Origin: Azolla caroliniana
Taxonomy: Eukaryota > Plantae > Polypodiophyta
NCBI GenBank assembly: GCA_043228905.1
Contig: JBHGNT010000008.1
Location: 1,922,001 to 1,986,000 of the forward strand
Length of the DNA: 64,000 nucleotides
Direction of reading: 5' to 3'
Under the pieces are notes generated by a model. That model saw nothing but the letters and a program-made list of their open reading frames with translations, did no database searches and was not told where the DNA came from. The position numbers and the translations under genes are program-made. Within the stretch, counting starts at the first letter, position 1; the number at the start of each line of letters is the position of its first letter. This document shows, piece after piece, positions 3,088 to 27,259 of this stretch.

Positions 3088-6000
3088 CTAGGTCTTGGCC
3101 ATTTTCTTCCGATCGGCTCTGTCCTTGTTGACGCTGTCGCCGATGCCGCTTGTTCTGACCTTTTCAGATGTGCCGACTCCTTCGGTCGGCTCGGCTTCCT
3201 TTTCCCTCTTGTCTCCCCCTTTGTTGGTTCTTTCTTCCTCTCCGACTCCTTCTCCGGTGCCATCCGTTCCCTTTCCTTTTCTCCCCCTCAAATGCGGCAC
3301 GTCGAGATGCTGAACACCAAGCATTTCGGTGAAGTGCTGCAACTTGTCCGATCTGAGCGGTTTGGTGAAGATATCGGCAATTTGTCGATCCGTCTGAACA
3401 TACCAAAGTTCAACGTCACCGCTACAAAACCCGCTCACGCACGAAGTGATAGTGCACTTCTATGTGCTTCGTCTGAGCATGAAACACGGGGTTCTTGGCG
3501 AGCTAAATGCTCCTCATGTTGTCACAATAGATCAGGATCGGGGTCAAGACCTCAATCCGCAGGTCTTGCAGCAGTCGCCGAAGCCAGATGGCTTCACAGG
3601 TGGCATTGGTAGCGCCCCGATATTCAACCTCAGTGCTCGACAGAGCCACTGTTGGCTGCTTTTTGCTGCTCCACGCAACAACCGCGCTACCCAGAGAAAA
3701 CATTTAACCAAAGGTGGATCGGCGATCCGATGCATCATCGGCCTAGTCGGCATCTGTATGTCCGACTAGTTCTTCGATTATACCATGCCAGTATAATAGT
3801 CCCCAGTCCTTCGTGCCGCTCACATACCGGAGTATCCGATGTGCGCACTGAAGGTGCCCGACGGTCGGCTTCTACATGAACTGGCTAATCACTCCGACTG
3901 GGTAACTGAGGTCGGGTCGAGTGATTGTCAAGTATATCAGACTTCCGACGATTTGTCGAAACCATTTCTCATCGCAGGCCGGTCCGGAGTTGGGATAGAG
4001 CTTTTGGTTTCGGTCCAGGGGTGTAGAGACAAGTTGGCACTCCGTCATACCGAACTTCTACAACATATTCAACACATAGTGTCGTTGTGAGAGCTATATG
4101 CCGTCGGGGGTTCGGATCACCTCGATCCCAAGAAAATAATGAAGGTCCCCCAGGTCCTTCTTTTCAAATGCGTTCAACAGCTGGGACTTTACTCAGGCGA
4201 TTTCATTGAGTCTGGGTCCGGTGATGACTAAATCATCAACATAAAGTAGGATGCAAACCGGACCATCCGGACCTTGCCGGATGAACAACGACGAGTCGGA
4301 TTTAGAGGTCACAAACCCCATCTTATGCAACTAGTGCATGATGTTCGCATTCCAAGCTCGGGGGGCTTGTTTCAGACCGTAAAGCGACTTCTTGAGCCGG
4401 CACACCGCCAACTTGTTCATCTCCGACTGAAAACCGGGAGGTTGGATCATATAGACCCGTTCTTCAAGGTCACCTTGAAGAAACGCATTCTTCTTCTAGT
4501 GAAGATGCCACCCCCTTGCCGCAACAACCGCCAATACCACACGAACCGTCGTCATCTTCACTACCGAGGCGAAGGTCTCATCGTAATCGATTCCCTGGGT
4601 CTGTGTGAATCCCTTCGCCACTAACCGGGCCTTGTACTAGTTAACCGAACCGTCGGCATTGTACTTTACCTTGTACCCCCATTTGCAACCGATCGGTTTA
4701 CAGTGTCGGGGAGGGTCAACGAGGTCCCAAGTGTCATTGGCATCTAATGCCCGCATTTCTTGCTCCATAGAGGCACGCCAATTTGCGTCCTTTGTCGCTT
4801 CTCCATAGCTCTCCGGCTCACGCACTTCCGCCACCTTAGTCATGAACGCATAATGATGCGCCATGTACTCATTGTACCCGTACCGCGTAACGGGGTTCTT
4901 CAAGCGGGAAGACCAGCGTAACTTGGTATTACCCAGTTTGGGGCCCTTCTTGGCCAGGTGAGACTTCGTTCCCGGAGATCCGCCATCATCCTTTCCGGAG
5001 TCGGATGCGCTCCGATCCGACTCAACATTGACGGTTTCGTATTCTGGCATCTTCTTCTTCCCCTTCTCTTTGCGTGTGAACCGTCTCCTCGGTTCCTTGC
5101 ACGGGGAGAGCACGGCAGAGTCTCCACTACTCGCCGGTTCCTAACCCGACTGGTCATCCCGACTCAGTCGCTCATTCGGTCCACTTAGCCGGAATGAGAT
5201 CAAACTCTCTTCTAGAGTGCCGAAGTCTTCATCTTCTACCTGGATCTCCTCGGGCTCACTAGCCTCAGCTTCCGGAATCAGTTCTTCGTTGGGAGTTGGA
5301 GTCAGTAAGGAGTACCATGATGCCGTCTCATCAAACTCGACATCTCGGCTTACTCGGACCTCCTTAGTCTGGGGGTTATAGCACTTATACCCCTTTTGCT
5401 CATGCGAGTAACTAACTAGAATGCACTTCTCCGACCTCGGATCCAGCTTCCTTCGCTTCTCATCCGGTACATGCACATATGCTATGCTACCGAATATCCG
5501 AAGGTGTCTCAAATTTGGCTTTCGCCCGAAATACAACTCATGTGTTGACACCTTGTCACCGATCCGGTTTTGGATGTAGACGGTCGTCCAGACCACCTCA
5601 ACCCAGCATTGCCCTTGCCGCGTCGACAATCGATTGGTTCTTCCTTTCGGCCACACCGTTTTGCTCCAGTGTGTACATGCAACTAGATTCTCTCTAAATT
5701 CCGTTCTGCTGCAGATAACTGTTGAATTGGCCAGAAAATTATTCTTTCCCGCCATCCGACCGGAGGCACTTGATCTTCCTCTCCATTTCCCGTTCAACCA
5801 AGCTTTGAAGGTTCTGGAAACACTCGAAGACTTCGCTCTTCCTCTCGATGAGGTAGATCCACGTGTGTCGGATGTAGTCGTCGATGAAGGAAACGAAATA
5901 CCGACTCCTACCAAGACTAACGTTTTGTGACGGTCCCCATACATCCGAATGAATTAAATCGAGCTTGTTATGGCTCCGGTTTCGATCGGTAGGGAATGGA

Positions 6001-7887: not shown

Positions 7888-8533
7888 TGTCGAGGTATTC
7901 CTCGCGGATGCGTGGAATGAGGCGGGACCTCGGGGGTCCTGTACCAAAGAGCAAGAGAGGAGGGGAAGAATCCCTCTACGTGCGAGCGTAGATCCACAGG
8001 GACACGGCCCTTCGACGCAAAGACGCAAGTGGGACAACGACACAGAAAGACACGAATGTATGTATGTATTGACAAAGACAAACAACAAGAACACGAAGAC
8101 AACAAAACACGAAGTCGGTTACAACCGAACAGGCCGGCGAACAGATGCCGATACCTGTTCGTAAACGCACAGAAAGACAGGAACAGGTTGGAGGTGCTGC
8201 CGGAAGCACTCGGGCATTCCTCAGAGCAGCGCGAGCCTCCCGAAACCTGCACAGAAGGAAGCTATGGAGTTTGAGAACCAGAGAGAGAGAGAGAGAGAAG
8301 CCTTCGCACGCAAAACCGACAGCACTCCGTCCTCGACTCTCCGCGATCCCTTCCTCCTCCTCGTCTCCCTCCTTTTATAGGCAAGGAAGGAGTTGTTTCC
8401 CCCTTTACTTCCCCACCTACCGAATCTGCCTGCATAGGATCTTCTATGTACAGCATAAGGCGCACGTGCATGAAGAGCCGGTTCCTAAGCTCCGGTGCAC
8501 CGATTCCGCTTGTGGACGGTTTTCTTCACGACA
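7888..8533 (-). repeat. 3' LTR of the Trp-primed gypsy
   Basis: Direct repeat of 23470-24113 with about 8 substitutions by eye plus a (GA)n length change. Confidence 0.93.
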
Positions 8534-8606
8534 TCCGCCCCCACGTAACCGCGCATCCACCGGCATGCACCAAATTGAGTTGGGATGGAGAAAACCGGTC
8601 CAGCCT

Positions 8607-9672
8607 TTATTCCCCGCTCGTCGGTTCTTCCTCGGTTTCGGATCGTTCATCGTCGCGGTCCAAGTCAACCGGATCCGGCTCGTCGTCGTGACGCTTCTTG
8701 AACGCTTTGATCCGCTTCCCAACTACCGGTATCGCCATTCTCGTACCGTCGAGTTCCGCCAGATGGTACGTCCCGTTGTCGTTGGCACTTTGTACCACGT
8801 AAGGCCCGAACCACCTTCTTGCGAACTTCCGTGTCGCTCGGTGCTGGTTGTCAAGGCTGTTGTCGTAGACTAGCACCCAGTCGCCTTCCTCGATCTTCTT
8901 TGGTCGGAGCCGGTGCGTCCGGTCGAACCGGGCTTTGTTCTTCATCCTTGCCTCCCGAAGCTTTTCCGCAGCCTGCTCCACGTCCTCCGGTCTTCGCTCG
9001 AGCTGTCGTATACGCGCCGCCAGCAGTTCCTCCCGGCTCATCTCGTCTCTCCAGTCCATGGTTGCCCACGAGGAGATCGTTCGTTCCATCGGCATGACCG
9101 GCTTCTGCCCAAACATGAGTTCTGCCGGCATGAATCCGGTTACCGAGCTGTGCGTAGTTCGGTCCGCCCACAACGCGTAAGGCAACAGCCGCGGCCAGTT
9201 CCCGACATGACCTCCGCATGCCCGAACTAACGCCTTGACGATCGGTCCGTGTCCGCTCTCTACCTTCCCATTCGCCTCTGGATTGTATGCAGTGGTAAGC
9301 GAGAGCTTGACTCCTAGCCGGTCGAACAGCTCCTCGGCCTCTTCGGCGTCCAACTCCCCGCGATCAGCCATGATCTTCCCGACGCACCCGTACCGGCATA
9401 TCACGTCCTCGATCAGGAACCGACATACGGCCGTGGTCGTTTTGTTCTGAAGGGCCCGGCCTTCCACCTGGTTTGTCAGATCTTCCCGAGCCAGGACCAG
9501 ATACCGCATCTGTCCGACGCCCATCGGCATCGTCACCAGATCTACCATCCATTTGAAGTGGACGGTCGGAGGGTACGTAGGGTGAAGCTCGTCCCGATGC
9601 CGGACTATGGAGTGCATCTGACAGCTCTCGCAAGTTGTCACGAACTGATGCACGTCACGGTACAGTCCCGGC
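8607..9672 (-). pseudogene. Gypsy integrase, C-terminal part (cut in the HHCC zinc finger by the chromovirus)
   Basis: KYWWPG|LYRDVHQFVTTCESCQ is rejoined across the insertion; WMVDLV, MADRGE, YNPEANGKVE, RWFGPY. Confidence 0.88.
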
Positions 9673-9783
9673 TGTCATGAACAGTACTGAGACAGAGAAG
9701 GAATTAGTACTAAACGAAGGATTAGTACTATGAGAGGTGTGGAACTTCTTCGAGAGAAGGAAGAAGTGAGCGAGACAGAGAGA

Positions 9784-9814
<31 letters not shown>

Positions 9815-10112
9815 TGATGATAAGAAAGATATTTATTATATGAAGAGAATATACAACGGTGGCTAAAAGGCTTAAGACTGGCGTTGAACCAATTTGGTTC
9901 AACATAATGCCTAGTGCCCTCTTTTATAGTGTTTTCAGGAGTAATCCTGAAGCTTCTAGAATGTTCCAGAGAAATCTGGAATATACACTAATTTCCTATA
10001 ATAAAATGTAAATGAAAATAATATCCTACGTATTACAATAGATGGTCTAATGGTCAAGAGCTCGACCCATATAACCTAAGGTCATGGGTTTGAGTCTTGC
10101 CATATCATGACA
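9673..10112 (-). repeat. Chromovirus 3' LTR
   Basis: Near-identical to 18433-18868 (2 substitutions seen outside the GA microsatellite); adjoins the PPT. Confidence 0.93.
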
Positions 10113-13100
10113 CTATCCCCCCTTTAAAACGACGAGTGTCACGAGTCGTCTTGGATTGAGGACCCGGTTTGTGTGGATATTGACGATGGAAGTCTTCAAG
10201 AAGAGCACGAGCATTGGTTACATTCTCGATCGGTTCCCAAGTACGTTCGCTGGGACTATAGCCTAGCCAATCGACTAGATAGTAGAGCTTTTTGCGAACA
10301 ATCTTGGAATCAAGAATGGCGGCAACCTCGTACTCCGGCCCATCTTCAAGCTCGATTGGGGGTGGAGGTTGGATAAGACGTTCTGGGATGGTGCTCTCGT
10401 GGTAGGGTTCGAAGAGAGAACTATGAAACACCGGATGTATCCGAAGTTGAGGAGGTAGATCGAGACGAAAAGCAACATCATTAATCTTTCCAATAATACG
10501 GAAAGGACCTAATCGCCGATAATCCAACTTCTCACATGGGCGAGTAGTCTTGATGTGTCGTCGTAGCAACCACACCCGATCTCCAATATTAAAACTAGAT
10601 GGAAGTCGATGACGATCCGCGTAGACCTTGTGTGTTTGTTGAGCTTGCTGGAGATGAGTAGATAAATCCGCTTGTATCTTGCGTAACCGCTCCAAACGAT
10701 CCTCCGCGCACGGATTTGTGGACACCCCTGGGGTTTCAAGTACACTCCACCGGGGGTGACATCCCGTATAAGCATAAAATGGCGTAACTTTAGTGGATGC
10801 GTGGATAGAGTTGTTATAGGCAAATTCGGCGAAGTGGAGAATATCTGCCCAGTCGTCCTGATGATAGCTGAGAAAGCACCGCAGATACTGTTCCAACGTT
10901 TGATTTGTTCGTTCAGCTTGGCCGTCAGTTTGTGGGTGCTAGCCGGAAGAGAGGTTACAAGTGACCTTGAGCATGTTAAAAAGGTGCTTCCAGAATTTTG
11001 ACACGAACTGGGGTCCACGGTCGCTGATGATACTATCGGGGAGTCCATGATGCCGACATACTTCACGCATGACAATTTCGGCAGTGTCTTCACTGGAGAT
11101 CTCCTTAGTACATGGCAAGAAATGAGCCATCTTCGTATATCGATCGACCACCGTTAGAATCGCATTGAACCCCTTAGAGACTGGAAGATCTGTGATGAAG
11201 TCTAGAGCAATGGATTGCCACGGCTTGCTTGGAATTGATAATGGTTCTAATAAACCATATGGATGATGCCTTGGCATTTTCGCTCTGCAACATGTATCAC
11301 AAGTCCGAACAAAATCCTCGACAAATTGTCGCATACAGGGCCACCAGAATGATCGTTGTACTAAATGTAATGTTTTAGTACTACCAAAATGCCCAGCTGT
11401 ATATGTGTCATGACAGTTTTGTACTACTCGAAGGCGGCAAGAACCATTAGGAACATACAAAAGTTCTTTAAAGAAGAGTAATCCATCATGGTATTTGAAT
11501 TGCCGATAGTCCGTACCTGGTGGTTGCGACTGTGAACACAACGCTCGAGAGGGATCAATTTGTGCTAGTATAGCTTGGGCGAACGCATCTGTCTTCAAGT
11601 CTTCACGTATGGTATCGATAATGCGGGAATCCATAGGCATGTCAAAGATTTGTGTTGCTTGTAATCGTGCCGGTCCCAAGATGACTTGTTTTTGGTTATC
11701 GAAAGCTGGCTTGCCGGGACGGGGTGCTAGATACGAACGCCGTGATAATGCATCTGCCTTCCCTTGGTGCCTCCCCGGACGATATGTAATTTTGAAGTCG
11801 AAACGCGTGAGGAAGTGGGCCCACCGAGCTTGACGTCGATTCAACACACGAGCATCCTGAAAGTAGGCAAGATTCTTGTGGTCACTAAATACGGTGACTG
11901 GATGAGAGGATCCCTCCAGAAAATGCCTCCATTGCATAAAAGAATCCACTATTGCCAATAGCTCCTTATCATGGATTTTGTAGTTGATTTCGGCGGCATC
12001 AAACTTGCGTGAGTGAAAAGCCACAGGATGTAGCTTTTCATCATTCCCCTGTTGTGACAGAATGCTCCCCAATGCAAAATCCGATGCGTCAGCTTCGATA
12101 ATGAATGGTTTCTCCGGATCGACATGAGCTAGAATTGGAGCCGATGTAAATGCTTTTTTAAGACTCTCGAAAGCCATGTCCGTTTCTTCAGACCAGGTGA
12201 ACGGTTGTCCCTTCCTGGTAAGTTGTGTGAGAGGTAGAACGATCTTTGAGTAATCCTGTATGAACTTCCGGTAAAAATTGGCAAAGCCTAAGAAGCATTG
12301 CACATCCCGTACCGAACGCGGAGTCTGCCATTCTACCACCGTTCTAACCTTAGCTGGGTCCATGGAGATGCCTTCTGACGAAATGATGTAGCCAAGAAAT
12401 TCCACTTGGTTGCACCCGAAACTACATTTTTCTAGCTTTGCATACAAACCATGTTCTCGAAGTCATTTTAGTACTAATAGTACATGAGAATCATGTTCTT
12501 CTTGGGTCTTTGAATAAACCAGTAGATCATCCAAATAGATGATCAAACAATCATCCAATAGATCTCGGAATATATCATTAGCCATGTGCTGGAAGACTGC
12601 CGGCGCATTAGTGAGGCCGAACGGCATGACAGTATACTCGAAGTGCCCATATCTGGTGCAAAATGCGGTCTTCCATTCGTCTCCTGGTCGGATCCGTACG
12701 AGGTTATATGCTCCCCGTAAGTCGATCTTCGTGAAGAACCTGGCACCATTGATCCGTTCTAAAAGACTTGAGATAAGGGGAAGAGCATACCTATTCCTGA
12801 TTGTAACCTTATTCAAGCCACGGTAATCTACAACGAGACGAAGCGATCCATCTTTTTTCTTGACGAAGAAAATGGGCGCACCGGCTGGAGATTTCGAATG
12901 CCGAATGAAACCATTTTCCAAATTCTCCTCTATATAGGCCCGAAGGACTTCCAGCTCGGTTGGTGACAAATTGTAGATCGGTCCCCATGGCGGCTCTTTT
13001 CCCGGTTGTAAATCGATGGGGCAATCGTACGGTCGATGATGAGGAAGTGTGTTGGCTTGTACTTTATCGAACACATCGGTGTAATGGCGATACTTCTCGG

Positions 13101-13701
13101 GAAGTTGAACGGTGGATTCTTCTTTAGTGGTGTTGGAGGGGTTTACTGATATTGCAAAGAGGAACATTTCCTCCTTGTGCCCTTCTTTACGCAACTGACG
13201 TAGCGAAATGGTTGCCATCTTCTGAGTTGACCCTTGGGTTTGTCGACACCGGATTTCTCTTGTTCTCCAATCTATGTCAGGGTTATGTAACTCGAACCAC
13301 GGTAGTCCTAAAACTATAGGATGTTCTGGGATACTAATAATATTAAATGATACTACACATACTAAGTTATCTAGGACAATATTAATGGGCTCTGACTCTT
13401 CTAGGATATTTCCGGAAGCAATGGGACGTCCATCAATGACTACTACAGAGGCTGGACACTGGAGTTTTCTTAGGGATATCTTATGAGCTTGAGCAAATTT
13501 CTTATCCATAAAGCAAGAGTTAGCTCCGGAATCTAGGAGTGCTAGGACATGTACTGGAGGGGTACTTTTAGTACTAACTATTACTTGGGCTACGAACACA
13601 TCACTAACTTGCTTAGAGGGAATGGAACCACTAATGGGCTGCACAGATCTAGGGCTGTCCAACCAAACGGCCCCTATTTTGGCTGGACTTAGTCGTTTAA
13701 C
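10105..13701 (-). pseudogene. Chromovirus pol (PR-RT-RH-INT-chromodomain), one frame with two premature stops
   Basis: LLDSGANSCF; KIDLRGAYN...YLDDLLV; EADASDFALG; HHCC and D-D-E region; EYEVAAILDSK...YLVDWLGY...TWEP. In-frame stops at ~12463 and ~10939. Confidence 0.92.
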
Positions 13702-14307
13702 TCTTCTTCTAACTGACTAAGGACATCAAATTTGTTTGCTAGATCTGGGATATTAGTACTATTAGGACTATCAGATATCCCTACTGAAATAGGTTCGGAT
13801 TTAGTACAATTAGAACTAGCGACTATTTGGTTTACCTGTCTTCTTGGCCTATGGGGGCAATTTATTGCGATATGTCCTGGTCCACCGCAGTAAAGACATA
13901 GTCGATTTGTACGGCGTCGCTGCTTTTCTTCTTCGGATAATGGCCCTCGACGACGTGTAGTGTCAATCTCCATCGGAGTCGGAGTATTCGCTGGAGACGC
14001 ATTATATGACTCCCTCGGAAAAGGTCTTGCTACCACTGAGGCGTAGGTGGGCTCTGATCTTGCCCTCGGCATCTGTAGCTGTCGTTCCGAACGTTGCTCA
14101 AAGAGGCGGTTTTCACATCTCACCGCGCGACTGATTGCTTCTGTTAAGGACTTTGGCTCTTCGGGGAAGGTCAAGAGTAAATCCTTGACGTCGTTGCGTA
14201 AACCATAACGGAATTGCTCCATCAACGCTTGATCATCCCAAGGGATATCGGCGGCGAGTAGACGAAAATCTGCAGCGTATGCGGAGGCTGGACGGTCACC
14301 TTGGCGT

Positions 14308-15035
14308 TGTCGTAGTGTATTTTGTACACTACGTGAAAAACGTATATAGTATTAGATTCAATAAAAAATGAAGAAATAGAAGAAAATAGCAAAATAAATG
14401 GAACATGCATAGGGCAAGATTCGAACCTTGCACCTCCATGTTAATAATGTAATGTCTTACCATTACACTAGCATTTCATTAGTGTTAAAGCATAGATGTC
14501 CCACATAGAAAGGTAAATTCACGCTAGGATAAACATTAGAAAAACGCATAACAAAAGAAAAAGCTACACATACACATCTAGCGTGCATGATAAAAAACGC
14601 ACAAGTTAGAAAAAAGCATGATCACTTTAGATAAAGCATATAGTCTATCTATAGGAAAAGCATGGGGTCTATAGTTAGAGAAAAAGCATGGATTACTAAG
14701 ACTTCCTCATCACTACATAAGGATGGGGAGCACAATGTAATTGTGTGTGAAAAATATTTGGAAACTGGATATGTTTCTAAAAAACACCAATTAATAAACT
14801 ATACTCGTGGGATTCACGAGAATTCTATATCATTCTCTTTCAACCGAAGTTTATATTCTTATATTCATATTGATTAATCTAATACAATACACTCGTGGGA
14901 TTCACGAGTTTGCTATAACTCTTTCTTACAACATATTTATATTCTTATTAGCCTTAAAACTCTCCTCTTCCTAGTCCAAAACCCCAGCGGTTCCCACCCG
15001 ACTCACGCAACGATCTGGCGCCGAAAGGCACGACA
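14308..15035 (+). repeat. 5' LTR of the non-autonomous element
   Basis: TG...CA direct repeat of 17095-17822 (offset 2787). Confidence 0.93.
14405..14477 (-). ncRNA. tRNA-like Pol III cassette in the LTR (second copy at ~17192-17264)
   Basis: Minus strand: A-box TAGTGTAATGG (14460-14470), B-box GGTTCGAATC (14418-14427) within hairpin GCAAG-GTTCGAAT-CTTGC, followed by T4 and T6 runs. Expression unknown. Confidence 0.6.
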
Positions 15036-15039
15036 CAGT

Positions 15040-15057
15040 TGGTGAACCCGACGTGAA
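15040..15057 (+). promoter_or_regulatory. Primer-binding site, tRNA-Trp
   Basis: TGGTGAACCCGACGTGAA, complementary to the 3' end of plant tRNA-Trp (...TTCACGTCGGGTTCACCA). Confidence 0.85.
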
Positions 15058-15073
15058 GACGGGTGGCAAGGAG

Positions 15074-17084
15074 ATGGAGAATCAACAAGAGGCGATGAAC
15101 ATGATGATGATAATGTTTGAGCGGATGCAACAAGAACAACATGCGATGTCGGAGATGAAGGCGGCAGTAGAGCGGCTTCTGCGACGAAACGGGGAATTCA
15201 ACGGTAAGGGTGTGTCACGCTACCTACGTGAATATAAGGCGGAGATGATGCAATATCGGATACCGGAAGGATTGCAAGTGATATCCTTTAGTCGGGTGGC
15301 CTCGGACGAACTACAAGAGAGAATCCACAAGATACAACAACAAAACTCGACATGGGAGTCCTTTGAAGAAGCTTTACGGGAGGCATATGACTATGAGAGA
15401 TGGACGGGACGAGATCGACGAGAATTCGACGAATGGGTGGCGTCGGAGAAGACTCACCGAAGTGCAACGCAAGCGTTCCTAGAGTTCGAGCATCGTTTGC
15501 TCGACTCTCGGAGCGGGAACGAAGATTGGTGGGAGAAGATAAAGTCTTAATGTTCGTAAGATCGATCGATCGGAAAGAAAGGATGGACATCGGGATCGAA
15601 CTCGAAGATGATGACGGTGCGAACGGTCTTACCGAGGATTGGGCCAAAGTCGAAAGGGTATGCCGAAGACATGATGAAAGGAAGCTGAGAATCTCGTCAA
15701 CAACGACATGGCCCATGAAGGATGGTCGATTGAGGAAAAACGATGAAGCCGATATGAAGGCCGAAATACAACATGATGGTGCGACGGAAGAGGGTGTAAA
15801 ACAAGCTACCCTCTTGTCTTGTGAAAGAACGATGGCGAAGGATAAGGCCGATAATTCAAGTGTAGAAGGAAATTTCGGGATACAAGTGCCCGAGACATCG
15901 GGTCAAAAAGGGGTAAGCATAATAGATTTTGCATAATTGATGCAGATAAAGAGTGTGAAGCGGATGTGATTAAGGAGGTAGCCACAAAAGACGAAATCAA
16001 ATCGGAGGTGGCTATGGACGAATCAATGGCGGATTGCCATATCGAGACTTCCCCACCACTGATTCCAGAGACTCCGGCGGTTGCGATCGAAAGGCAACGT
16101 GAGACCGAAGAGACGGAAGGTGGCGGAGAGAAAACGAATGTCGAAGCCGACGAATACGATGAAGAGATAGCCGAGAAGAATGCTAAGGGTGAAACTACGA
16201 AAGAAGGTAATACCGAGGATTCATGCCAACAATATCTAGAGACTTCGGCGGTTGTGTCCGAGAACCAACGTGAGACCGGAGAGACGGGAGATGGCGGCGA
16301 GGAAGGTAAAGTCGGAAGTCGGTTCGGATGGAAAATGATCCATCCGAAATTCCAATCTAAAAGAAAGTGCGACAATGCGGAGGTCGGGTCTACGACGGGA
16401 GAAGTGCGTAATACAGAGCACGCTCTACGGCGAATAAAGAAACGCGTGTTATGGCGAATAAAGAAGCACGCGCTATGGCGAGAAAAGAAGCATGCATTAC
16501 AACCACACGAGGACCGAACAACGAGCACATATCGGAGGACCTACGTAGCGAACAACGGAAAGAAGTGCCGAAAGTCGAACCGGACAAGGCAGGTGAAAAC
16601 GAAGAAAAGAAAGCAAATCCGGACGAAAAGAAAAGAAAAGAAACCGACCCGAAAGAGCATTGAATCGGTAAAAACCGACCAACCGAGTCCGGATCGACCG
16701 AATACAAATCGGAAAGGAAGCCGAACTAAACGAAAGACGATCCGACGAGACCGAATCGGAAGTAAGCTAATACGACTAAACCGAAAATCCGAAAAGAAGT
16801 CGAGATTGATGAAGAAAAGAAAGAGGGCAAGAAAAGATACTACCGCGGATGACAAGGACCAAGCGGGCCATGCAAAAAGCGAACGAAGACTATGGTGGAT
16901 CGGATGTCGACAATGGTTTGGGTGGAAAGAATGGATGTGCTCCAAATGGAGAGACAAAGTCAACATAACAAGAGAAGTCGAGGGTACTACGAGCCGGCAA
17001 CGAAACCAATCGGGTAGAGACCGAACGGAGGAGACTAACAAACACCAACAACTTCGGCACATACCGGAGGATGTGCGGGTTTGA
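15074..17084 (+). pseudogene. Frameshifted gag plus acidic/basic low-complexity ORF of the non-autonomous element
   Basis: GEFNGKGVSRYLREYKAEM...TWESFEEALREAY and KVLMFVRSIDRKER...GLTEDWAKVERVC align by eye to the outer gypsy gag (GRFSGKDATKYLASYGAEM...TWEEFEGRLLERY; RVLLFVKSVDERDR...GLTTDWAAVKRVC). Confidence 0.75.
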
Positions 17085-17094
17085 AGGGGGTGAG

Positions 17095-17822
17095 TGTCGT
17101 AGTGTATTTTGTACACTACGTGAAAAACGTATATAGTATTAGATTCAATAAAAAATGAAGAAATAGAAGAAAATAGCAAAATAAATGGAACATGCATAGG
17201 GCAAGATTCGAACCTTGCACCTCCATGTTAATAATGTAATGTCTTACCATTACACTAGCATTTCATTAGTGTTAAAGCATAGATGTCCCACATAGAAAGG
17301 TAAATTCACGCTAGGATAAACATTAGAAAAACGCATAACAAAAGAAAAAGCTACACATACACATCTAGCGTGCATGATAAAAAACGCACAAGTTAGAAAA
17401 AAGCATGATCACTTTAGATAAAGCATATAGTCTATCTATAGGAAAAGCATGGGGTCTATAGTTAGAGAAAAAGCATGGATTACTAAGACTTCCTCATCAC
17501 TACATAAGGATGGGGAGCACAATGTAATTGTGTGTGAAAAATATTTGGAAACTGGATATGTTTCTAAAAAACACCAATTAATAAACTATACTCGTGGGAT
17601 TCACGAGAATTCTATATCATTCTCTTTCAACCGAAGTTTATATTCTTATATTCATATTGATTAATCTAATACAATACACTCGTGGGATTCACGAGTTTGC
17701 TATAACTCTTTCTTACAACATATTTATATTCTTATTAGCCTTAAAACTCTCCTCTTCCTAGTCCAAAACCCCAGCGGTTCCCACCCGACTCACGCAACGA
17801 TCTGGCGCCGAAAGGCACGACA
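17095..17822 (+). repeat. 3' LTR of the non-autonomous element
   Basis: Follows the PPT; apparently identical to 14308-15035. Confidence 0.93.
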
Positions 17823-18418
17823 GCGTAATCGCCGGATTTTGTTGATTGCGGTCCTGATGCAGTCAGTATCTCCGAAACATGCTTTAAACTCACCTAGAAA
17901 CTCTTCAAAATTGTTGAGTAACGGAGATTCCTTTTCTACTAGTGGAGCGAACCATGACAACGCTGAGCCACTTAACAAAGTGCCTACTAAACCCACTCGT
18001 GATGCATCGGTGGGATATCGGGAAGGATGCATTTGAATAACTAATCGTACCTGGTTAAGGAACCCTCTAAACTGCGATCGCGTTCCATCGAACTTCGTGG
18101 GAAGGCCAATCTTAGGTTCTTTATGAATCCCTTGTGTTCCGGGCCCATGTTGTTGCATCGCTACGATGGTGGCTTCGAGTTGTTGCACGCGTAACGCAAG
18201 TTCCCCATGTTGTTGTTGCGTTTGCTGCTTTTCTAAGGAGATTTGCTGAAGATCCCCCAGCAACCGTTGGTTTTCTTGTTCCAAAGCATGGAACTTCTCC
18301 TTCAAGCATTGGAATTCCGAGAAAACATATTGATATTCTTCAGCGCTAACAGTGGCCATGGGATGAAAGAAAAGAGGAATAAAAGATTAGTAGGAAATGA
18401 GAGAGACAGAAGGTAGGG

Positions 18419-18430
18419 AAATTGGTTCAA
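18419..18430 (-). promoter_or_regulatory. Self-priming PBS (complementary to the element's own predicted transcript 5' end)
   Basis: Minus-strand TTGAACCAATTT, 2 nt after the 5' LTR, is complementary to AAATTGGTTCAA at 18640-18651, which lies 33 nt downstream of TATAAAA (18678-18684). Confidence 0.75.
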
Positions 18431-18432
18431 AC

Positions 18433-18868
18433 TGTCATGAACAGTACTGAGACAGAGAAGGAATTAGTACTAAACGAAGGATTAGTACTATGAGAGGTGT
18501 GGAACTTCTTCGAGAGAAGGAAGAAGTGAGCGAGACAGAGAGAAAGAGAGAGAGAGAGAGAGAGAGTGTGTGATGATAAGAAAGATATTTATTATATGAA
18601 GAGAATATACAACGGTGGCTAAAAGGCTTAAGACTGGCGTTGAACCAATTTGGTTCAACATAATGCCTAGTGCCCTCTTTTATAGTGTTTTCAGGAGTAA
18701 TCCTGAAGCTTCTAGAATGTTCCAGAGAAATCTGGAATATACACTAATTTCCTATAATAAAATGTAAATGAAAATAATATCCTACGTATTACAATAGATG
18801 GTCTAATGGTCAAGAGCTCGACCCATATAACCTAAGGTCATGGGTTCGAGTCTTGCTATATCATGACA
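18433..18868 (-). repeat. Chromovirus 5' LTR
   Basis: Direct repeat of 9673-10112; flanked by the TSD CCGGC. Confidence 0.93.
18792..18861 (+). ncRNA. tRNA-like Pol III cassette at the chromovirus LTR terminus (second copy at ~10036-10105)
   Basis: A-box TGGTCTAATGG (from 18799) and B-box GGTTCGAGTC (from 18843) at tRNA spacing. The 3' LTR copy has GGTTTGAGTC. Confidence 0.6.
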
Positions 18869-18873
18869 CCGGC

Positions 18874-21309
18874 CACCAGTACTTCCCCTTTATTTTCTCG
18901 AACGTGGCCCACATTCCACGGTGTCCAGCCCAAGGGCTGTCGTGGTAGGCCGTCAGCAGCTCCTCCTATTCTTCCTTCATCGCCACCACCCGGAGCGGGA
19001 CGCCGTTCCTCTTCTTCGGGTGCTTCCATAAGTATCCGTCCCGGAGAAAGAATCGGTATGCTTTCTTCCGGATCCGGTTGGCCTCGTCCTTCGTCCATGA
19101 CGCATCCAGCGTCATTGTCCTCAAAAATCCACCGATCTGGAGCCACTCGCCGTCGTACTTGCTCTCGTCGAAGTCGTTAAGTGCCGGAGTGCTCGTCCCA
19201 TCGGTCGTCACGTACGCTGTCTCGAAGAAGTCCACGCCGACTTCTTCGTCCTCCGAAACCATGCCGCCCTCGTCATCAAACCTCGCCCTCGAAAGCATGT
19301 CGGCCATGGCGTTGTCCTTTCCGGAAATGTGCCGTATTTCCGGGTCCAGGGACTTGATGTACGCTATCCACCGGAGCATCGCCAGGTCCGGTGTCGCGCA
19401 TCCGGAAACCATGCCGAGAATCGGCAGGCAATCCGTCTCGATAACCACTTCTGTCCCGATCAAGTAGTCTTTGTCGGCCTTTACTGCCGAAACGATACCC
19501 CAGAGTTCGCGTTTAACCTGGGCGTACCCTCGCTGTCGTTCACTGAGGACATTCGCGCCGAATAGGATCGGGAACCGAATGCCGTCCTTGTCTTCTTGGT
19601 TGACGACCCATCCGATCCCGGTCGGGCTCGTATCCACCGTTATGTATACTAGGGTACCTTTCTCGTAGACAGCCTTCCGGATCGCCGGTGCTGCCGTAAG
19701 AGCTTCCTTCAGCTTCCGGACCGACTCCGTGTGCTCGTCTCGCCACTCGAATTTTCGCCCTTTCTTCAGCAACCCGTATAGCGGCTCCGCAACGTGGGCA
19801 TAATGAGGGATCCATATGTGGTAGAACGCGCATGCCCCCAGGAACCTCCGAACTTCCGTAACCGAGCTACAATCGGTCTTCATCGCGGAGATGGCTTCTA
19901 CCTTTGCCGGAGACGGCTTCCGGCCATAAGGTCCACATAGGTGTCCAACCACCAGGATTTCCGATTGCCCGATGGCCGATTTCTCCCCAGAGAAGGTGAG
20001 CCTCGCATCCTGTAGCCTCTGTAGCACCTTCTCGCAGTCGTCGGTGTGTCGCCACGAATCGCCGACATCCGTCCGGCCCGACTATCTCGTCCTTCTCCTC
20101 CACCGGCCACCCCTTGATTGGGATGTCGTCTAGAAACGGCATGGTGATGTCCGGGATGCAATCCCTTAGTACCTTGTTCATTCCGTTCACCATGTGGGCC
20201 ACCGAGTTGGTCCCTCCTTGTGGCAGGGTACACATCCGCACTAGGCCGAGGGGAGTTCGCATCGTCGTGATGTCTCTGCTCTCCATGGCTGGCTGGAACT
20301 GGTCGTACCCCGAGTATAGATCACCGACCGAGTAAATCGACCTTCCGGCGAAGGCCTCTGTGAACTCGTCTATGGTCGGTCCGATTCCTGCGTTCCGAAT
20401 GGTCACTCTGTTGACCGGCTGCAGGTCTTGAATGAAGCGCATCGTCCCGTTTTTCTTTGGTACGGTAAACCATCGGTTCGAGTATGGGGCACTCGACGGT
20501 TCGAGAATACCCATATCTACTTTCTGCCTCAATAGCTCCATCAACTTCGGGATGTGAGCTCTCGGTACCGGAATCGGCTTGAGATTCCACGGCACATGCA
20601 GTACCGTGAATATGACCATCGGCTCCACGATCGTCGGGTCTACGCACTCGATCTCTTCCGGTGAGAATGCGAAGGCTTTCCCGTGCCTTCCGAGCATTCT
20701 CCAAAACCGGTCTTCCTCCGCCGGCAGTAGGAACCCGCCCCCACCGATCTTGAGCTCCCGGAGCGTCCTGTCGGTGAAGGTGTGTCCTATGCAGGCCGGA
20801 TCTCGTAAACTGGGGTCCGACGCAACCCCTCTGATTCGGGACTCGCTGCCCTCAGGTAAGGGTGCCGCGACGGGCCTTACCTTCCGATCCACAGTCTTGT
20901 ACTTCGTGCTAACTCGGGCCATCCGATCCGACTTGAGCCCCTGACTGAAGTCAGCGATGACTTCGTACATTTCTTCGGAACATACCGGTATCGTCCGGTC
21001 TTCGTTAAGGTCTTCTCCGGCTACCTTCCTCAGCATCCCCAAGGTGTCGTCGAAGGAGACCGCCTCCACGGCTCCGCTGATTTCCTCGTCCGGGCCGAGA
21101 ACTCCGCACGCTCGAAGTCGCTCCTCCGCCCTTGCCCTTTCTCGGCCAACGATGCCGACTATCATACATCCTCCGTCGTCAGAGAAGCAAAATTTCCTGC
21201 CTATCGTACAAGGTTTCTTCGGTTTCGGTTCTATCGTACAGCTGTGGGGTCTTTCCCGAGTCTCCGGACTGTCTCGGCCCCACGCCTCGGCAGCCCTCTC
21301 TAAAAATCC
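18874..21309 (-). pseudogene. Trp-primed gypsy RT-RNase H-start of INT (frameshift at ~20040, stop at 18966)
   Basis: WFTVPKKNG...FIQDLQPVN...VGDLYSGYDQ...PQG...FLDDIPI; ITVDTSPTGIG...ELWGIV...ETDCLP...NAMADMLSR; AYHDSPWAGHRG. Confidence 0.88.
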
Positions 21310-23425
21310 TCCCGGTTCTCGCCACCGAGGGATTCGCAGTTTCGTTCGTGGTTCGGTCTCACGGTCAGAAATTGGACCGAATGGCGCCCGTCCTGGCTTT
21401 TGACCCTTGCGTAGACCGAACCGTTGTCTAGCACCTTGGTCTCCATTCGCGCCGCCGTGATGTATGGTTCCCCTAATATGACCGGGTGCGAGGACATCTC
21501 CTGTACGAAGAAGTGTTGGTCAATCTCGACGTCGCCGATCTTGACTCGCACGTTCGGGCAGGCCCCATGCAGTTCCTCGGTGGCGCGCGTCGCCGCCCGT
21601 ATCTTCCACCCGTGCTTGGTGTTGATCGGCCACTTCCCCTTCTTATAGAAGTCCATGGACATCAGGTTTATTTCCGAACCGTGGTCCACCAACGCCACCA
21701 CCAGTTCCTGAACATCTCCGATCTTCACCGGGGTCTCCGTGGTCGCTCGGGCCCAGTGTGGCCTCGAATAGTGGCTCTCCGCCCACTCATCTGCCAGCGC
21801 CGAGTCGTCGATGTGCGTCGTCCGCACCTCTACCGGTCTTTCCGGATCCGTCTCCGTCGAGAGCCTCTTCCGTTTCACCAAGTCTACAATGGAGTCATGG
21901 AACTCCTTCTTGGCGATCCCTAGCACCTCCCGCAATGACAGCTCCACCTTGCTGTCGAGGATCCGTTCCTCTAGGACCTTTCGTAGGTCCGTGGTCCTTT
22001 CTATTTCCGTCCCCAGTCGGTATCCGCCCTTCTTGGGGTTGTCTTGCGCGCTGGGCCTGCCAGCATCGTTCCGTCGTTGCCCGAATCGGGTCTCGTACCG
22101 TTGTGAAGGCCCAGCCTCTCCGGCTTTCCCCACTCGTTTGTCTTCTACCAAAGCCTCGTAGTTCCGGCAGGCGGCTTCCACGAAGCCCGTCTTCTCCTCG
22201 ACCGGATCGCTCCACCCGGTTATTTCCCGGACCCGTCTCTCAGCGCAGTCCGTTTCATCCTTCTTCAACCGTGCGCCGGCAAGACCTTCCAGCATCGCCG
22301 ACCAGAATCCGTCTTTGCCCTCCTTTCGGGCCTCGCTGCCCCCGACCCGAATGCCGGCCGACACCGAGTAGTGGATGGCCTCCACGTGTCGGGTCGCTGC
22401 CTCCTCCATCAGTCTCTTCATACCTCCTCGTCCGTCGTTTCGGTTTAGGGCCCTTCTGGTGTCGTCGGCGTGCACCCGGCCTTCCCACAGGTACACCACC
22501 CGGTTCCTCAACGCTTTCGCGAAATCGCCGCAGTCCTTCCGGATGTGGCCGACCTCGTCGCACCACATGCACCTGTTCCCTATTGCCGGCCGTAGGTCAC
22601 GAGCCGGTTCGCCGCCTTCCCTTCGAGTTTGGGCGATCTGGAGTTCCTTTATCGCCCGCGTCAACTCCTCCAGCGTTGCTCCTCCGGACGAGCCACTGAC
22701 CATGCCGGTCGAAGCCGGACTGGTTTCGAGCCATTCCCGGGTTTCTTCCCTTCACCCTGCGGTGCCGGTTCAAGCCTCCTTGCTGTGACAGACCCCGCAC
22801 CGGTCACCCCATTATCAGCCCATTCTCGTCGTTTGTCGAACCGGCCACAGACCCTCTTAACCGCAGCCCAGTCAGTCGTCAGCCCGTCTTCGGTTTCCAG
22901 CAAGGAGCCGACTTGATCCCGGTCCCGCTCGTCCACCGACTTGACGAACAGTAGGACCCGGCTCGTATCCAGAACGGTTCGGTCAAGCGCCGAAAGGCGC
23001 GCAAAGCGTTCTTCGAACTCCCGGAGGAGTGCCAACGCGTTTCTTCCCTTGCCGGGGGACTCCACCCATTCCATGAAATCTCGTTTCGAAAGCCGGAGCG
23101 CGTCGTCCAGCCCGTATCTTTCCAGGAGTCGGCCTTCAAACTCCTCCCAGGTACGGCTCTCCGCCCGCACCTCGAGCACCTCCGCGTGGATGCTCGGCAT
23201 CGCCACTCGAGGAAACCCGGCAAGACGCCTCTCTTCCAGAATGTCCCGCATCAGCATTTCTGCCCCGTAGGATGCCAAATACTTCGTGGCGTCCTTTCCG
23301 CTGAACCGGCCGATCGTACCGACGACCGCCTCGATGGCTCTGTCGAGGGCGCCGGAGCCCTCGCGTGCGCTCAATATCCGATCCACGGCCGAAGCCATGG
23401 CCTCTGCAAGATCCGCCCCTTTCAT
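21300..23425 (-). pseudogene. Trp-primed gypsy gag-protease ORF1 (one frameshift at ~22750)
   Basis: Capsid-like N-terminus, zinc knuckle CMWCDEVGHIRKDC, aspartic protease LVDHGSEINLM...VILGEPY. Confidence 0.85.
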
Positions 23426-23447
23426 CTTCTGCTCTTCTGCCGCCTCT

Positions 23448-23465
23448 TTCACGTCGGGTTCACCA
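23448..23465 (-). promoter_or_regulatory. Primer-binding site, tRNA-Trp
   Basis: Minus-strand TGGTGAACCCGACGTGAA, 4 nt after the 5' LTR; same sequence and spacing as at 15040. Confidence 0.85.
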
Positions 23466-23469
23466 AAGA

Positions 23470-24113
23470 TGTCGAGGTATTCCTCGCGGATGCGTGGAAT
23501 GAGGCGAGACCTCGGGGGTCCTGTACCAAAGAGCAAGAGAGGAGGGGAAGAATCCCTCTACGTGCGAGCGTAGATCCACAGGGACACGGCCCTTCAACGC
23601 AAAGACGCAAGTGGGACAACGACACAGAAAGACACGAATGTATGTATGTATTGACAAAGACAAACAACAAGAACACGAAGACAACAAAACACGAAGTCGG
23701 TTACAACCGAACAGGCCGGCGAACAGATGCCGATACCTGTTCGTAAACGCACAGAAAGACAGGAACAGGTTGGAGGTGCTGCCGGAAGCACTCGGGCATT
23801 CCTCAGAGCAGCGCGAGCCTCCCGAAACCTGCACAGAAGGAAGCTATGGAGTTTGAGAACCAGAGAGAGAGAGAGAGAAGCCTTTGCACGCAAAACCGAC
23901 AGCACTCCGTCCTCGACTCTCCGCGATCCCTTCCTCCTCCTCGTCTCCCTCCTTTTATAGGCAAGGAAGGAGCCGTTTCCCCCTTTACTTCCCCACCTAC
24001 CGAATCTGCCTGCATAGGATCTCTTATGTACAGCATAAGGCGCACGTGCATGAAGAGCCGGTTCCTAAGCTCCGATGCACCGATTCCGCTTGTGGACGGT
24101 TTTCTTCACGACA
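23470..24113 (-). repeat. 5' LTR of the Trp-primed gypsy
   Basis: Direct repeat of 7888-8533; adjacent to the PBS. Confidence 0.93.
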
Positions 24114-24286: not shown

Positions 24287-24852
24287 AAAAATAAGTCACT
24301 ACCTATAAGAGTGAAGCAGTGACGAAAATAAGGTTCAAAAAACCATGACAGTGTTACCTACTAAAATAAACGCCACAAATAAATGGATGGTGCGAAGTAA
24401 TTGTAATTTGCATAATTGTGACATAAGCCACACATTGATACAAATGGTGGTGGTGTTGTGCGCAAAGATGTTGTACTCAAATCTATGAGTAAAACATCAA
24501 TATGGGAACTCATGTGTTTTTAATCGAGTTCTAAGGCTCAATTACATGAGTTAAACTTAGAGGACTCTTTGGAAAAAATATTTAAAACGCGAAATGATGC
24601 CCACTCAATACGAAAAAAATAGTCTACACAAAATCATTACCCAATAGGGAAACACACGTAAATAGTGTAGATGAACATAAAAATTAAGGCTAAAAAAACA
24701 ATGAAGTGTGGGTGGGTAGATGACAATCATAAGAAAATCTTAAGAAAGGGAAAAGACAAAGACAAATTGTGTAATTAGAAAATACTTAGGATAATAATCA
24801 AATAGGTGTATGAAACATTAAGCATGCCTTAAGGTAAGAAACCCTAGGGTAG

Positions 24853-25090
24853 TCGACATGCGCCTGCTCAAGACCACAACATTCCATAGAATCAACCAAG
24901 TGATGTCTCAAGAGAGACTAGAGTGGCATAGGTAGGGGACATACACCTCGTCAAGACCACCACATCCCATAAAATCGGCTAAGTGGTAGCCCAAGAGAGA
25001 ATAAAGTGGCATAGTTAGGCGACATACACCTCGTCAAGACCACAACATCCCATAAAATCAGCCAAGTGATGGCTCAATAGAGAGTAGAGT
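24853..25090. repeat. Tandem repeat, about 3 x 83 bp
   Basis: TCAAGACCAC...CCATA.AATC..C.AAGTG recurs at 24868, 24951 and 25034. Confidence 0.8.
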
Positions 25091-27259
25091 AATCGAGATT
25101 AAATTCATCCTAAGACCTAACATTGGCATTGTAGGCTTTGAAGCACTTTACAACTACTTCCACCCACATCACTAGCAATAGGGTAGATGACAATTTGGTC
25201 CTGCATCACCACCACGGTAAGGAGGTATAACACCAACCAAGAATAAGATGTGCCCTCGATGCTACACAATTGTCGAAACCCATGCCTCATTGGCATCTCC
25301 CAAGTCAAGAATCAACCATTGTAAATTGTGCAATACCCATTATGACTCTACTAGAACTTAAGCATATGAAAGGAGTACATAGGCTTCCTACTAAGTCCTT
25401 CAAAGAAAAATCAAGCATCCTTTAAAACCTTACGATATTCCAATGCTTGGAGTTTCCGTTTTCTACAACATTATCATGGCATTATATTTATGGGAACCAA
25501 TTTCTCATTATGTTCTATTTTCATGTTGACATACCATGGAGTACATGCATCGATGACAATAAGAGTCTAGGTGCATGTTCTATTTTCAAAAAGGTCATGG
25601 CTATGAGGAATGTAAAGAGGTTGGCCCTTCAAATACTCTAGCAAGGGTAACTATTTTTTAATGTGTAAATGGTTGACATATAACTAGTAAATCATATCCT
25701 ATAAGAGAAGTCAATGGATGCCATAAAAGTATGTGCCACCAAAATAGTGCCTAAGATCATCGGTGCTCATTTTAAATATGCCAAATGTCTAAGGCATCAC
25801 CACATTACACTAGGCTCAAAGTCATAAGGTACCCCATGAATATATCTTTGTTATAATTTCAAAGTTTGATATCACAAAATGTCTTTGCTAACATTGTCAT
25901 GTGAGATATCATTAAAGAGATGTCATTATCTTGCCAAACTTAAAAATATTGATGAAATACCCCACAATGTTGCAACAACTTGCACAAGGCATGATTATCT
26001 TGTCGTCCCTCAAAAGGTTACAAGCACTCTTATGACCATTGGCGATGTCCTCAATAACCCCACGACACTCAAAAAATATATTGCAATAAGGATCAAGTAA
26101 CGTTTTTATAATGGTTCGCTTATGAGCCTTCATTAGATGTGTCATCTTTGTATATTGATGAACCACCAATTTCAAGATAGAATCAAAACACAAGGTGGGA
26201 AATCCCATCGCCTAGTTCTTAACCGTATGTGTTGAGAAGCTATGATAATATATTCTACCTTCTCCCTTTGTTATCTCTTCAAATTCGCCACTAATCCATT
26301 GACAAGTACACATTCATTTTAAAACTCGAGATTTCTCAAGGATTGGGTATATTATGATCTTTTGAAGATTCCCTACATGGACCTCAAAGTTAATTTCCAT
26401 TGCAAAGAACCCAAAAATTGAAAAACCATAGGACATGATTGATTATCTTTAACAACCTAGAACATGAAAACTTGGTTGACACGCCAACTTCCAAAACAGG
26501 TTTGCAATGTTGATAACGATTTATTAGAGCCTTCAAGAGGTTTCTTTTGATTCCATGATAAAATCTTCTTTCAATATAAAACTAACAAGCAAGACAACCA
26601 AGGATAGCATAGCCTTCCACGAAGACGCTATATAGATTTCAATATAACAACAATCATTCGCTCACTTAGGTATCTACTACTCTTGATAATATTTGAGCCC
26701 CATGGAAACATCATCTTTGCATATACAATAAATGCTAGAATCCCAACTTTTGATCAAGAGGAAATTTGGTTCTTTAATGCTGCATATGCCATTGATACAG
26801 CTCCTTAGCTCTTGGAAATATGCTCAATCTCAGTCTCACCATTCTCATTTTCAATTTTGAGTGGATGGTCGTGGCTGTAGTTTTACAGAATAACTTATCA
26901 TGTGGTTAAGATCCTTTTTTAGGTCTTGCTAATCATAAATCCATCTTTTACAACATGATCTTTATACACAAAAAGAACAAATGATATCATCTTAAAACAA
27001 AATCATACAGATAATCAATCACAAGGACACTCTTTACACGAAATAACAAACAATATTTCATTAGAATGAAATGATGAAGATCATCACAAGAAAGTATATG
27101 AGGAGACTGAAGTGAATCCTCTGGATATGTCAATCCTTATTGCTATATACAAAGAGAGGACACTCTTTATTGTATTTGAAATCTATTGTGCACACCAATT
27201 GAAAAGAAACTTAGCATAGTACATAGGACGCTTATCATAAAAGATTAGTTTGTAGCCCC

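Follow-up and report, generated by a model that had tools for sequence, protein, structure and literature searches.

Antisense tRNA-type promoter boxes in the long terminal repeats of Tcn1-type and Phygy-type retrotransposons of Azolla caroliniana: candidate TFIIIC sites

Introduction

The closest described relatives of the structures reported here are Helenus elements, non-coding miniature terminal-repeat retrotransposons (TRIMs) of 311-1263 bp that contain tRNA-derived A and B boxes in their long terminal repeats (LTRs) (Kojima 2024, PMC10886601; this and all other papers are cited for selected sections). According to the same source, tRNA-like parts are present in 'not a few LTRs' of Repbase; it analysed only elements of <1,000 bp, and its sole plant case, in the sections cited, is Selaginella (PMC10886601). 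Given that remark, the raw observation may be known to Repbase curators. Here, we analysed a 64,000-nucleotide stretch of Azolla caroliniana DNA (hereafter the window; assembly GCA_043228905.1, contig JBHGNT010000008.1, positions 1,922,001 to 1,986,000), in which tRNA-like cassettes with both boxes stand antisense in the LTRs of a Tcn1-type chromovirus and of a gag-only Phygy-type element, nested one in the other within a larger Phygy-type host.

The retroelement Ty3 is tied to TFIIIB and TFIIIC and inserts beside host tRNA genes. In yeast, TFIIIC binds the boxes, for which an internal C of the B box is required, and places TFIIIB on the AT-rich 50 bp upstream (PMC3395662). Fission yeast tRNA genes with an intact A box block the spread of heterochromatin (PMC2040200). 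The P. patens chromodomain element RLG1 is transcribed although located in heterochromatic islands (PMC7466625). Self-priming has been predicted for Tcn1, and Phygy elements show an NCGN target preference and tRNA priming (PMC6317226).

We interpret the cassettes as tRNA-derived type 2 RNA polymerase III (Pol III) promoter modules that have become fixed in U3 of Tcn1 and some Phygy LTRs and are probably kept by selection as TFIIIC/TFIIIB DNA sites that would hold open or shield the RNA polymerase II (Pol II) promoter. We hold this interpretation as a whole with moderate confidence. Among its parts, selection for TFIIIC binding is very probable from the sequence comparisons below, and a role as a barrier or in opening chromatin is an evenly balanced proposition.

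Antisense cassettes in the LTRs of both elements

The four antisense cassettes proposed in an earlier note on this DNA were all found at their sites by sequence and box scans, and a further cassette lies in a solo LTR.

18792-18863, plus strand (antisense to the element): cassette of the chromovirus 5' LTR; A box 18799-18809, AGGT corresponding to tRNA positions 44-47, B box 18843-18852
10036-10107, plus strand: cassette of the chromovirus 3' LTR; A box 10043-10053, B box 10087-10096 with C56T at 10091
14407-14477, minus strand (antisense): cassette of the gag-only 5' LTR; A box 14470-14460, B box 14427-14418
17194-17264, minus strand: cassette of the gag-only 3' LTR; boxes span 17257-17205
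54897-55165, minus strand: solo LTR of a third LTR family of the window, non-coding, self-primed and Tcn1-type; antisense cassette with A box at 55077 and B box at ~55121-55130 on the plus strand

The inner part of the solo LTR contains a run of plant telomere-like repeats.

The A and B boxes are 44 nucleotides (nt) apart in the chromovirus and 43 nt apart in the gag-only element, the spacing of class I tRNA genes; that it is tRNA-like had been recognized in the note. The note's description of the arms was partly correct: the anticodon arm is scrambled, with the anticodon and acceptor stems lost, but the T-arm is out of tRNA register. ARAGORN and Rfam scans of the window did not call the cassettes as tRNAs, the sole tRNA call being a tRNA-Ser at 43654, and the gag-only cassette reached 13.4 bits in the Rfam tRNA scan against a 29-bit cut-off. 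No 5S match to the cassettes was found in the Rfam scans, and the boxes are of the tRNA type. A functional tRNA gene was rejected because a cloverleaf with paired stems was not found by ARAGORN, Rfam or stem and fold tests. Neither cassette is the priming tRNA, as had been claimed: the chromovirus has no tRNA primer-binding site (PBS), and the PBS of the gag-only element corresponds to tRNA-Trp(CCA). Aligned over their whole length, the chromovirus and gag-only LTRs are no more alike than shuffles (126/300).

The cassettes point outward, as described, in the 5' LTRs. In the chromovirus 5' LTR, 16 nt separate the end of the B box from the LTR edge, and in the gag-only 5' LTR the first run of four T residues (T4) lies 23 nt downstream, still within the LTR. 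The 3' LTR copy, however, faces the polypurine tract (PPT) and the internal region. Likewise, the antisense orientation near the start of U3 holds in the window but not universally, as one autonomous Phygy family has its cassette at a depth of ~520 nt within the LTR, and an extra sense cassette is present in two Phygy families.

Occurrence across LTR families

A pattern combining the A and B boxes had 3,186 matches in the 523-Mb genome, compared with 0 for a reversed-pattern control. Of the first 30 matches, 28 belonged to five LTR families, and the other 2 to a free short interspersed element (SINE) with a tRNA head. LTRs were also sampled independently of the boxes, through features outside them, by taking the first 30 loci per search, all on contig C1. 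The Tcn1 sample consisted of PPT-LTR junctions (1,614 matches; control, 14), and a pair was counted at <=2 mismatches and a spacing of 43-44. An antisense A+B pair was present in 28/30 Tcn1 chromovirus LTRs and a sense pair in 0/30, so the orientation is not random; single-base shuffles of LTR starts gave a pair in 0/1,200 cases. Of the two loci without a pair, one has a deletion (L142) and the other is degenerate (L170). Among Trp-primed Phygy LTRs, 4/30 had the cassette (from 4,722 matches), and among Met-primed elements 0/30 (from 12,853 matches).

The box pattern was passed by 25/30 and 30/30 near-identical LTR copies, which identifies the cassette as a family feature. Copy-specific SINE insertion with its own target duplication and tail was rejected because the cassette is present across copies and families. 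Carriers include autonomous Tcn1 elements (RNase H-integrase 62-94% identical to that in the window), autonomous Phygy elements (L091, L309) and gag-only families, and the antisense cassette persists in Tcn1 families whose RNase H-integrase is as little as 62-69% identical to that in the window. Some Phygy LTRs hold more than one cassette (two or three), with antisense cassettes in U3 and sense ones following a TATA-like motif (L309/L180, L310/L197; remnant, L175); in two Phygy families the sense cassette lies 55-70 nt after this motif, with the TATA assigned by eye. Apparent sense matches at two other Phygy loci were rejected, one being a neighbour's cassette (L174) and one lying outside the LTR (L176); a further Phygy locus, L198, has an apparent sense match with 2 mismatches and a spacing of 45. 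Gag-only LTRs recur five times every ~2.79 kb in a tandem array of the element at C17:11.94-11.95 Mb.

In a metagenome search, 44/50 loci were examined, the other 6 being omitted because the match ended before the protein end. Fifteen close relatives (protein 61-97% alike) had an antisense pair, with a spacing of 42-46 and <=3 mismatches; a 16th candidate, L219, proved to be a mis-pairing. None of the distant metagenome loci had an antisense pair, and an LTR was readable only in L213 and L216.

Box conservation without a shared RNA fold

Conservation was assessed in 20 hand-picked family representatives (10 Tcn1, 8 Phygy antisense and 2 Phygy sense; one degenerate cassette was dropped), with the window chromovirus family represented by its intact 5' copy and five Phygy representatives found via the box pattern. 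Pairwise identity was 1.0 at T8, G18, G53, T54, T55, C56 and A58, 0.9 at A14, G19 and C61, and 0.9-1.0 at tRNA positions 44-47, compared with 0.35 in the remaining spacer, 0.37 in the upstream flank and 0.33 in the downstream flank. G46-T47, which are conserved, are also part of the B-box consensus of Dictyostelium (PMC3159450). Across 19 related Tcn1 LTRs, divergence was 0.068 in the B box and 0.115-0.163 in its surroundings, and the A box changed mostly at positions 9, 10 and 12. The expectation that the boxes are more conserved than the adjacent U3 was thus borne out by the identities of the representatives and by the B-box divergence.

Stem covariation was absent relative to column-shuffled partners (D stem, 32 vs 29.9; anticodon stem, 26 vs 25.7; T stem, 23 vs 23.5), and that of the acceptor stem (42 vs 35.4; 208/2,000 column shuffles) was not above that of partners drawn from other families. 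The mean fold z was -1.2, compared with -1.5 for upstream controls. A shared RNA fold was rejected on both grounds. The cassettes are tRNA remnants that have lost the RNA shape and kept the promoter boxes.

These results bear on the suggestion that the cassettes are antisense Pol III genes with a functional RNA, which could base-pair with the genomic RNA at its U3/PPT end, exert small-RNA self-control or serve in reverse transcription. The A box, the B box and the AT-rich upstream region are all retained, as in a full promoter, the window cassettes form strong, family-specific hairpins (fold z, -3.0 and -4.0), and a T4 run follows the B box by 22-37 nt in several Phygy families. However, the representatives share neither a fold nor stem covariation, and their spacers are 35% identical between families. 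No T4 run follows the B box within the LTR in 8/9 Tcn1 representatives with a located LTR edge. As most Tcn1 LTRs lack an internal terminator, transcripts from the 5' LTR would terminate in flanks that differ from copy to copy. The absence of a conserved fold and terminator weakens the small-RNA-gene idea of the earlier note, which we consider unlikely, and any cassette RNA seems to be a secondary by-product. Poly(A) RNA runs of another organism (22, 56 and 61 matching reads, none 99% alike) are uninformative for Pol III RNA.

The two positions of the B-box CpG were compared with each other. In single copies of the window chromovirus family, C56T occurs 208 times and G57A 104 times, and C56T is present in 4/30 Tcn1 junction copies. 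Though common in single copies, C56T is fixed in no sampled family. On the Tcn1 tree, a parsimony reading by hand gives ~3 changes at position 57 and none at C56; under a 2:1 mutation bias, this outcome would have a chance of ~0.04 and is no more than suggestive. C56 accounts for 98-100% of the Tcn1 depth in three contig sets from other samples.

Alternatively, the cassettes could be neutral relics, old SINE or tRNA insertions hitchhiking in successful LTR lineages, with the antisense bias reflecting loss of harmful sense insertions. The genome does contain a SINE that has a tRNA head and a target duplication of 17 bp (L093), most Phygy and all sampled Met-primed elements are without a cassette, intact box spacing is expected from descent, and C56T is present in a relative's reads. 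A relic of this kind is nevertheless hard to match with box positions that are invariant next to a spacer and flanks near background, with the commonest mutation, C56T, remaining unfixed, and with retention of the cassette in 28/30 Tcn1 LTRs, and we regard it as distinctly unlikely.

Position relative to the Pol II promoter and the LTR edge

From the edge inward, the Tcn1 LTR comprises the attachment site, B box, A box, 50 AT-rich nt, an nGAAn array, the TATA box and the start. The corresponding features of the window chromovirus are as follows, with divergence given for the 19 related LTRs.

18744-18793, plus strand: AT-rich stretch (80%) upstream of the A box, a predicted TFIIIB site by analogy with yeast (PMC3395662)
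18705-18722, no strand assigned: nGAAn array between the cassette and the TATA box; divergence 0.035
18677-18685, minus strand: Pol II TATA box, 114 nt inside the A box; divergence 0.018
18639-18659, minus strand: palindrome ~25-30 nt past the TATA box; predicted transcript start and self-primer

The nGAAn array at 18705-18722 is heat-shock-element-like; similar arrays occur at 9949-9966 and in L146, L156, L159 and L167, and divergent Tcn1 families have it enlarged to many TTCTAGAA repeats. In 19/20 representatives, AT content is higher in the 50-nt stretch upstream of the A box than in the next 150 nt. Intact A and B boxes with an AT-rich upstream region, as looked for in a tDNA/TFIIIC barrier, are present. 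A 1.4-kb non-coding partner family (L286) is also self-primed, and its primer site and LTR start site differ jointly from those of the window family.

In the main Tcn1 family, the B box lies 11-16 nt from the LTR edge and pairs there with the spacer as a hairpin. Such a layout would suit a signal of the cDNA end or of the RNA (integrase attachment, strand transfer or packaging), with the tRNA derivation incidental. However, the distance between box and edge is not constant (6-63 nt in Tcn1; 110 to ~520 nt in Phygy), and the hairpin is family-specific, making this explanation of the conserved letters highly improbable.

The boxes might instead aid positioning or targeting, if bound TFIIIC/TFIIIB tethered elements or cDNA to a nuclear compartment or offered landing sites for nested insertions, as with Ty3 and TRE5-A. 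TRE5-A is attracted to isolated B boxes (PMC3159450), extra TFIIIC (ETC) sites determine nuclear position (PMC3395662), and locus L102 has an insertion ~10 nt upstream of the A box. In the window, however, the nested insertion is ~980 nt from the A box, the sequences upstream of the genomic cassettes examined are nearly all uninterrupted, and Tcn1 already has a chromodomain for targeting. The targeting aid suggested in the earlier note found no support in this analysis, and we consider it quite improbable.

Weighing a chromatin role

In the mechanism that we propose, a tRNA-derived SINE head or retrocopy would have entered U3 of a 3' LTR and been copied to both LTRs, probably at least twice. 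TFIIIC would bind the A and B boxes. As the module points outward in the 5' LTR, TFIIIB would be placed on its inner side, over the 50 AT-rich nt, and would stand there back to back with the heat-shock-like array and the TATA box, which are 100-200 nt away; Pol III would transcribe in the direction leading away from the Pol II promoter. The complex would limit silencing from the flank, which would matter most for chromodomain elements inserting into heterochromatin. Avoidance of transcription through the Pol II promoter would account for the antisense bias, and in the two Phygy families with an added sense cassette there would be a module on either side of the promoter, each facing away from it. 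In the widest form of this proposal, LTR retrotransposons would have recruited tRNA-gene promoters more than once as chromatin barriers that they carry with them, two gypsy lineages bearing an outward-facing TFIIIC/Pol III site that shields the Pol II promoter in heterochromatin, some bracketing the promoter on each side, with thousands of copies seeding Pol III sites genome-wide; this version is tentative and falls somewhat short of an even prospect.

Several observations weigh against selection for TFIIIC binding or against a barrier role. The cassette is absent from 26/30 Phygy LTRs, including the host family of the window, from the commonest Phygy family and from 30/30 Met-primed elements. 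It is also absent from L213 and L216, the distant chromoviruses with a readable LTR, and no B box was seen by eye in the Selaginella SM-Tcn1 LTR given in the supplement of PMC2864245. The additional cassette in two Phygy families is sense and lies in the inner half of the LTR. As yeast barrier activity is orientation-independent (PMC2040200), the antisense bias is not accounted for by a barrier role on its own. Regarding conservation, the invariant positions are also the ones that make up the tRNA elbow, divergence over the whole A box is 0.153 among the 19 related Tcn1 LTRs, no lower than background, and Phygy box conservation is partly by construction because five representatives came from the box pattern. 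The comparison of C56 with position 57 rests on ~3 events (chance, ~0.04). C56T makes up 22.9/51.1 of the depth over the gag-only LTR in one contig set, and in a related organism's reads over this LTR it occurs in 10/12 and 29/29, apparently from one or two read-through loci. These reads match the gag-only LTR only at the start, the B-box region and the end, with the A box following in the same register, and the C56T that they carry weakens a strict need for C56.

If the proposed chromatin role is true, a Pol III barrier carried by the element itself would offer a simple explanation of how heterochromatin-targeting retrotransposons stay expressed, an open question. Capture of small-RNA genes in LTRs would then extend from miniature elements that use it as a promoter to autonomous ones that cannot, at least 3,000 candidate TFIIIC sites would be added to this genome, and tDNA-type boundaries would gain a plant case.

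Possible sources of the cassettes

The chromovirus and gag-only spacers share 11/30 nt. By spacer, the Tcn1 cassettes group together (11-28 shared) and five Phygy types group with the gag-only element (13-24), with Phygy T6 nearer to Tcn1. At least two separate captures are likely from these comparisons. The convergent capture envisaged in the earlier note is therefore plausible, with a single ancient origin followed by LTR exchange as the alternative. Since carriers flank the cassette-less host family on both sides of the Phygy tree, loss or LTR swapping occurred.

No isotype stood out as the parent tRNA among 14 (best, 14-18/30) in a panel that is incomplete and includes organelle-type genes. 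The tRNA-headed SINE of this genome (~340 bp, 17-bp target duplication; L093 ~4705-5046, and L094) has a head with a fold z of -5.0. It was rejected as a direct donor, sharing 9-16/30 spacer nt, and shows that such donors exist. Tandem arrays of tRNA-Lys, tRNA-Trp-like and tRNA-Ile genes occur at C5:17.99 Mb, C8:17.80-17.82 Mb, C16:4.99-5.11 Mb and C2:20.11 Mb, and the tRNA-Trp 3' end has 64 genome matches.

The nested elements and their surroundings

The carriers form a triple nest, with the chromovirus inserted in the Phygy-type host and the gag-only element in the chromovirus gag.

7888-24113, minus strand: host Phygy element; LTRs 7888-8533 and 23470-24113 without cassette, target site duplication (TSD) ACGT, Trp PBS
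9673-18868, minus strand: Tcn1-type chromovirus inside the host; TSD CCGGC
18433-18868, minus strand: chromovirus 5' LTR (TGTCA...TGACA), differing from the 3' LTR by 4 mismatches and 4 gap columns
9673-10112, minus strand: chromovirus 3' LTR
10105-14307, minus strand: 3' part of chromovirus gag, protease, reverse transcriptase (RT), RNase H, integrase and chromodomain, broken by in-frame stops
17823-18386, minus strand: 5' part of chromovirus gag, separated from the rest by the nested element
18419-18431, minus strand: predicted self-priming site of the chromovirus, which has no tRNA PBS; complementary to the palindrome at 18639-18659
14308-17822, plus strand: gag-only Phygy-type element of 3.5 kb; 4-bp TSD GCGT
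14308-15035, plus strand: gag-only 5' LTR; 0 mismatches to the 3' LTR
17095-17822, plus strand: gag-only 3' LTR
15036-17094, plus strand: gag-only internal region with a broken Phygy-type gag (31% to the host gag) and no pol
15040-15056, plus strand: gag-only PBS, complementary to the 3' end of the genome's tRNA-Trp(CCA)
43654-43736: tRNA-Ser(GCT), an ordinary nuclear gene

All domains of a full gag-pol chromovirus are present, as the earlier note had stated, including a chromodomain after the integrase (PF00385, E 5.7e-15), but this copy is disrupted by in-frame stops and the nested insertion. The sequence following its 5' LTR pairs with the palindrome just past the TATA box, a self-priming layout. 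The host and the gag-only element have 4-bp NCGN duplications (ACGT and GCGT), as is typical of Phygy, and share a primer site matching tRNA-Trp(CCA). The Tcn1 and Phygy labels derive from TSD, priming and chromodomain features; the RT tree contained no reference sequences.

A primer-site-like TGGCGCCG motif closes the gag-only LTR just within its 3' end (15015-15030 and 17802-17817). Elsewhere, the window contains a 166-nt inverted repeat pair 7 kb apart (27249-27414 and 34458-34623) and an 83-nt tandem repeat in three copies (24848-25096).

Relation to described systems

A literature search found no description of antisense tRNA-box cassettes in LTRs; Repbase entries and subscription papers were outside its reach, and a prior remark is possible. 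Small-RNA promoters in LTRs are already known from Helenus, Ajax and Cassandra, and their antisense occurrence in autonomous elements appears, from the sequences and the cited sections, to be new here. The window elements agree with published Tcn1 (self-priming, chromodomain, 5-bp TSD) and Phygy (4-bp NCGN TSD, tRNA priming), but the cited sections of those accounts do not mention Pol III boxes in the LTRs (PMC6317226, PMC2864245).

As in Cassandra and Ajax TRIMs, a captured and conserved Pol III promoter resides in the LTR. However, theirs is 5S-derived (A, intermediate element [IE] and C boxes), the elements are non-coding, and Cassandra transcribes its genomic RNA from it (PMC10886601). The predicted arrangement of TFIIIC sites beside silent chromatin resembles yeast tDNA, ETC and chromosome-organizing clamp (COC) barriers, but those are host loci rather than transposon-borne, and at ETC sites the B box is extended and Pol III is absent (PMC2040200, PMC3395662). 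Dictyostelium TRE5-A is likewise linked to TFIIIB/TFIIIC and inserts beside host tRNA genes (PMC3159450), whereas the elements described here bear the boxes in their own LTRs.

Helenus is similar in having tRNA-derived, conserved boxes in both LTRs, no working tRNA and no primer function, and a SINE insertion has been proposed as its origin (PMC10886601). However, Helenus elements are short and non-coding, while the carriers here are autonomous families with gag-pol and, at 3.5 kb, a gag-only element. The five Helenus LTRs compared have a sense cassette that is presumed to be the element promoter (PMC10886601), in contrast to the antisense cassettes of the Azolla elements, which stand upstream of a separate, conserved Pol II TATA box. 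Because they differ in size, coding capacity and orientation, the cassette carriers do not belong to Helenus.

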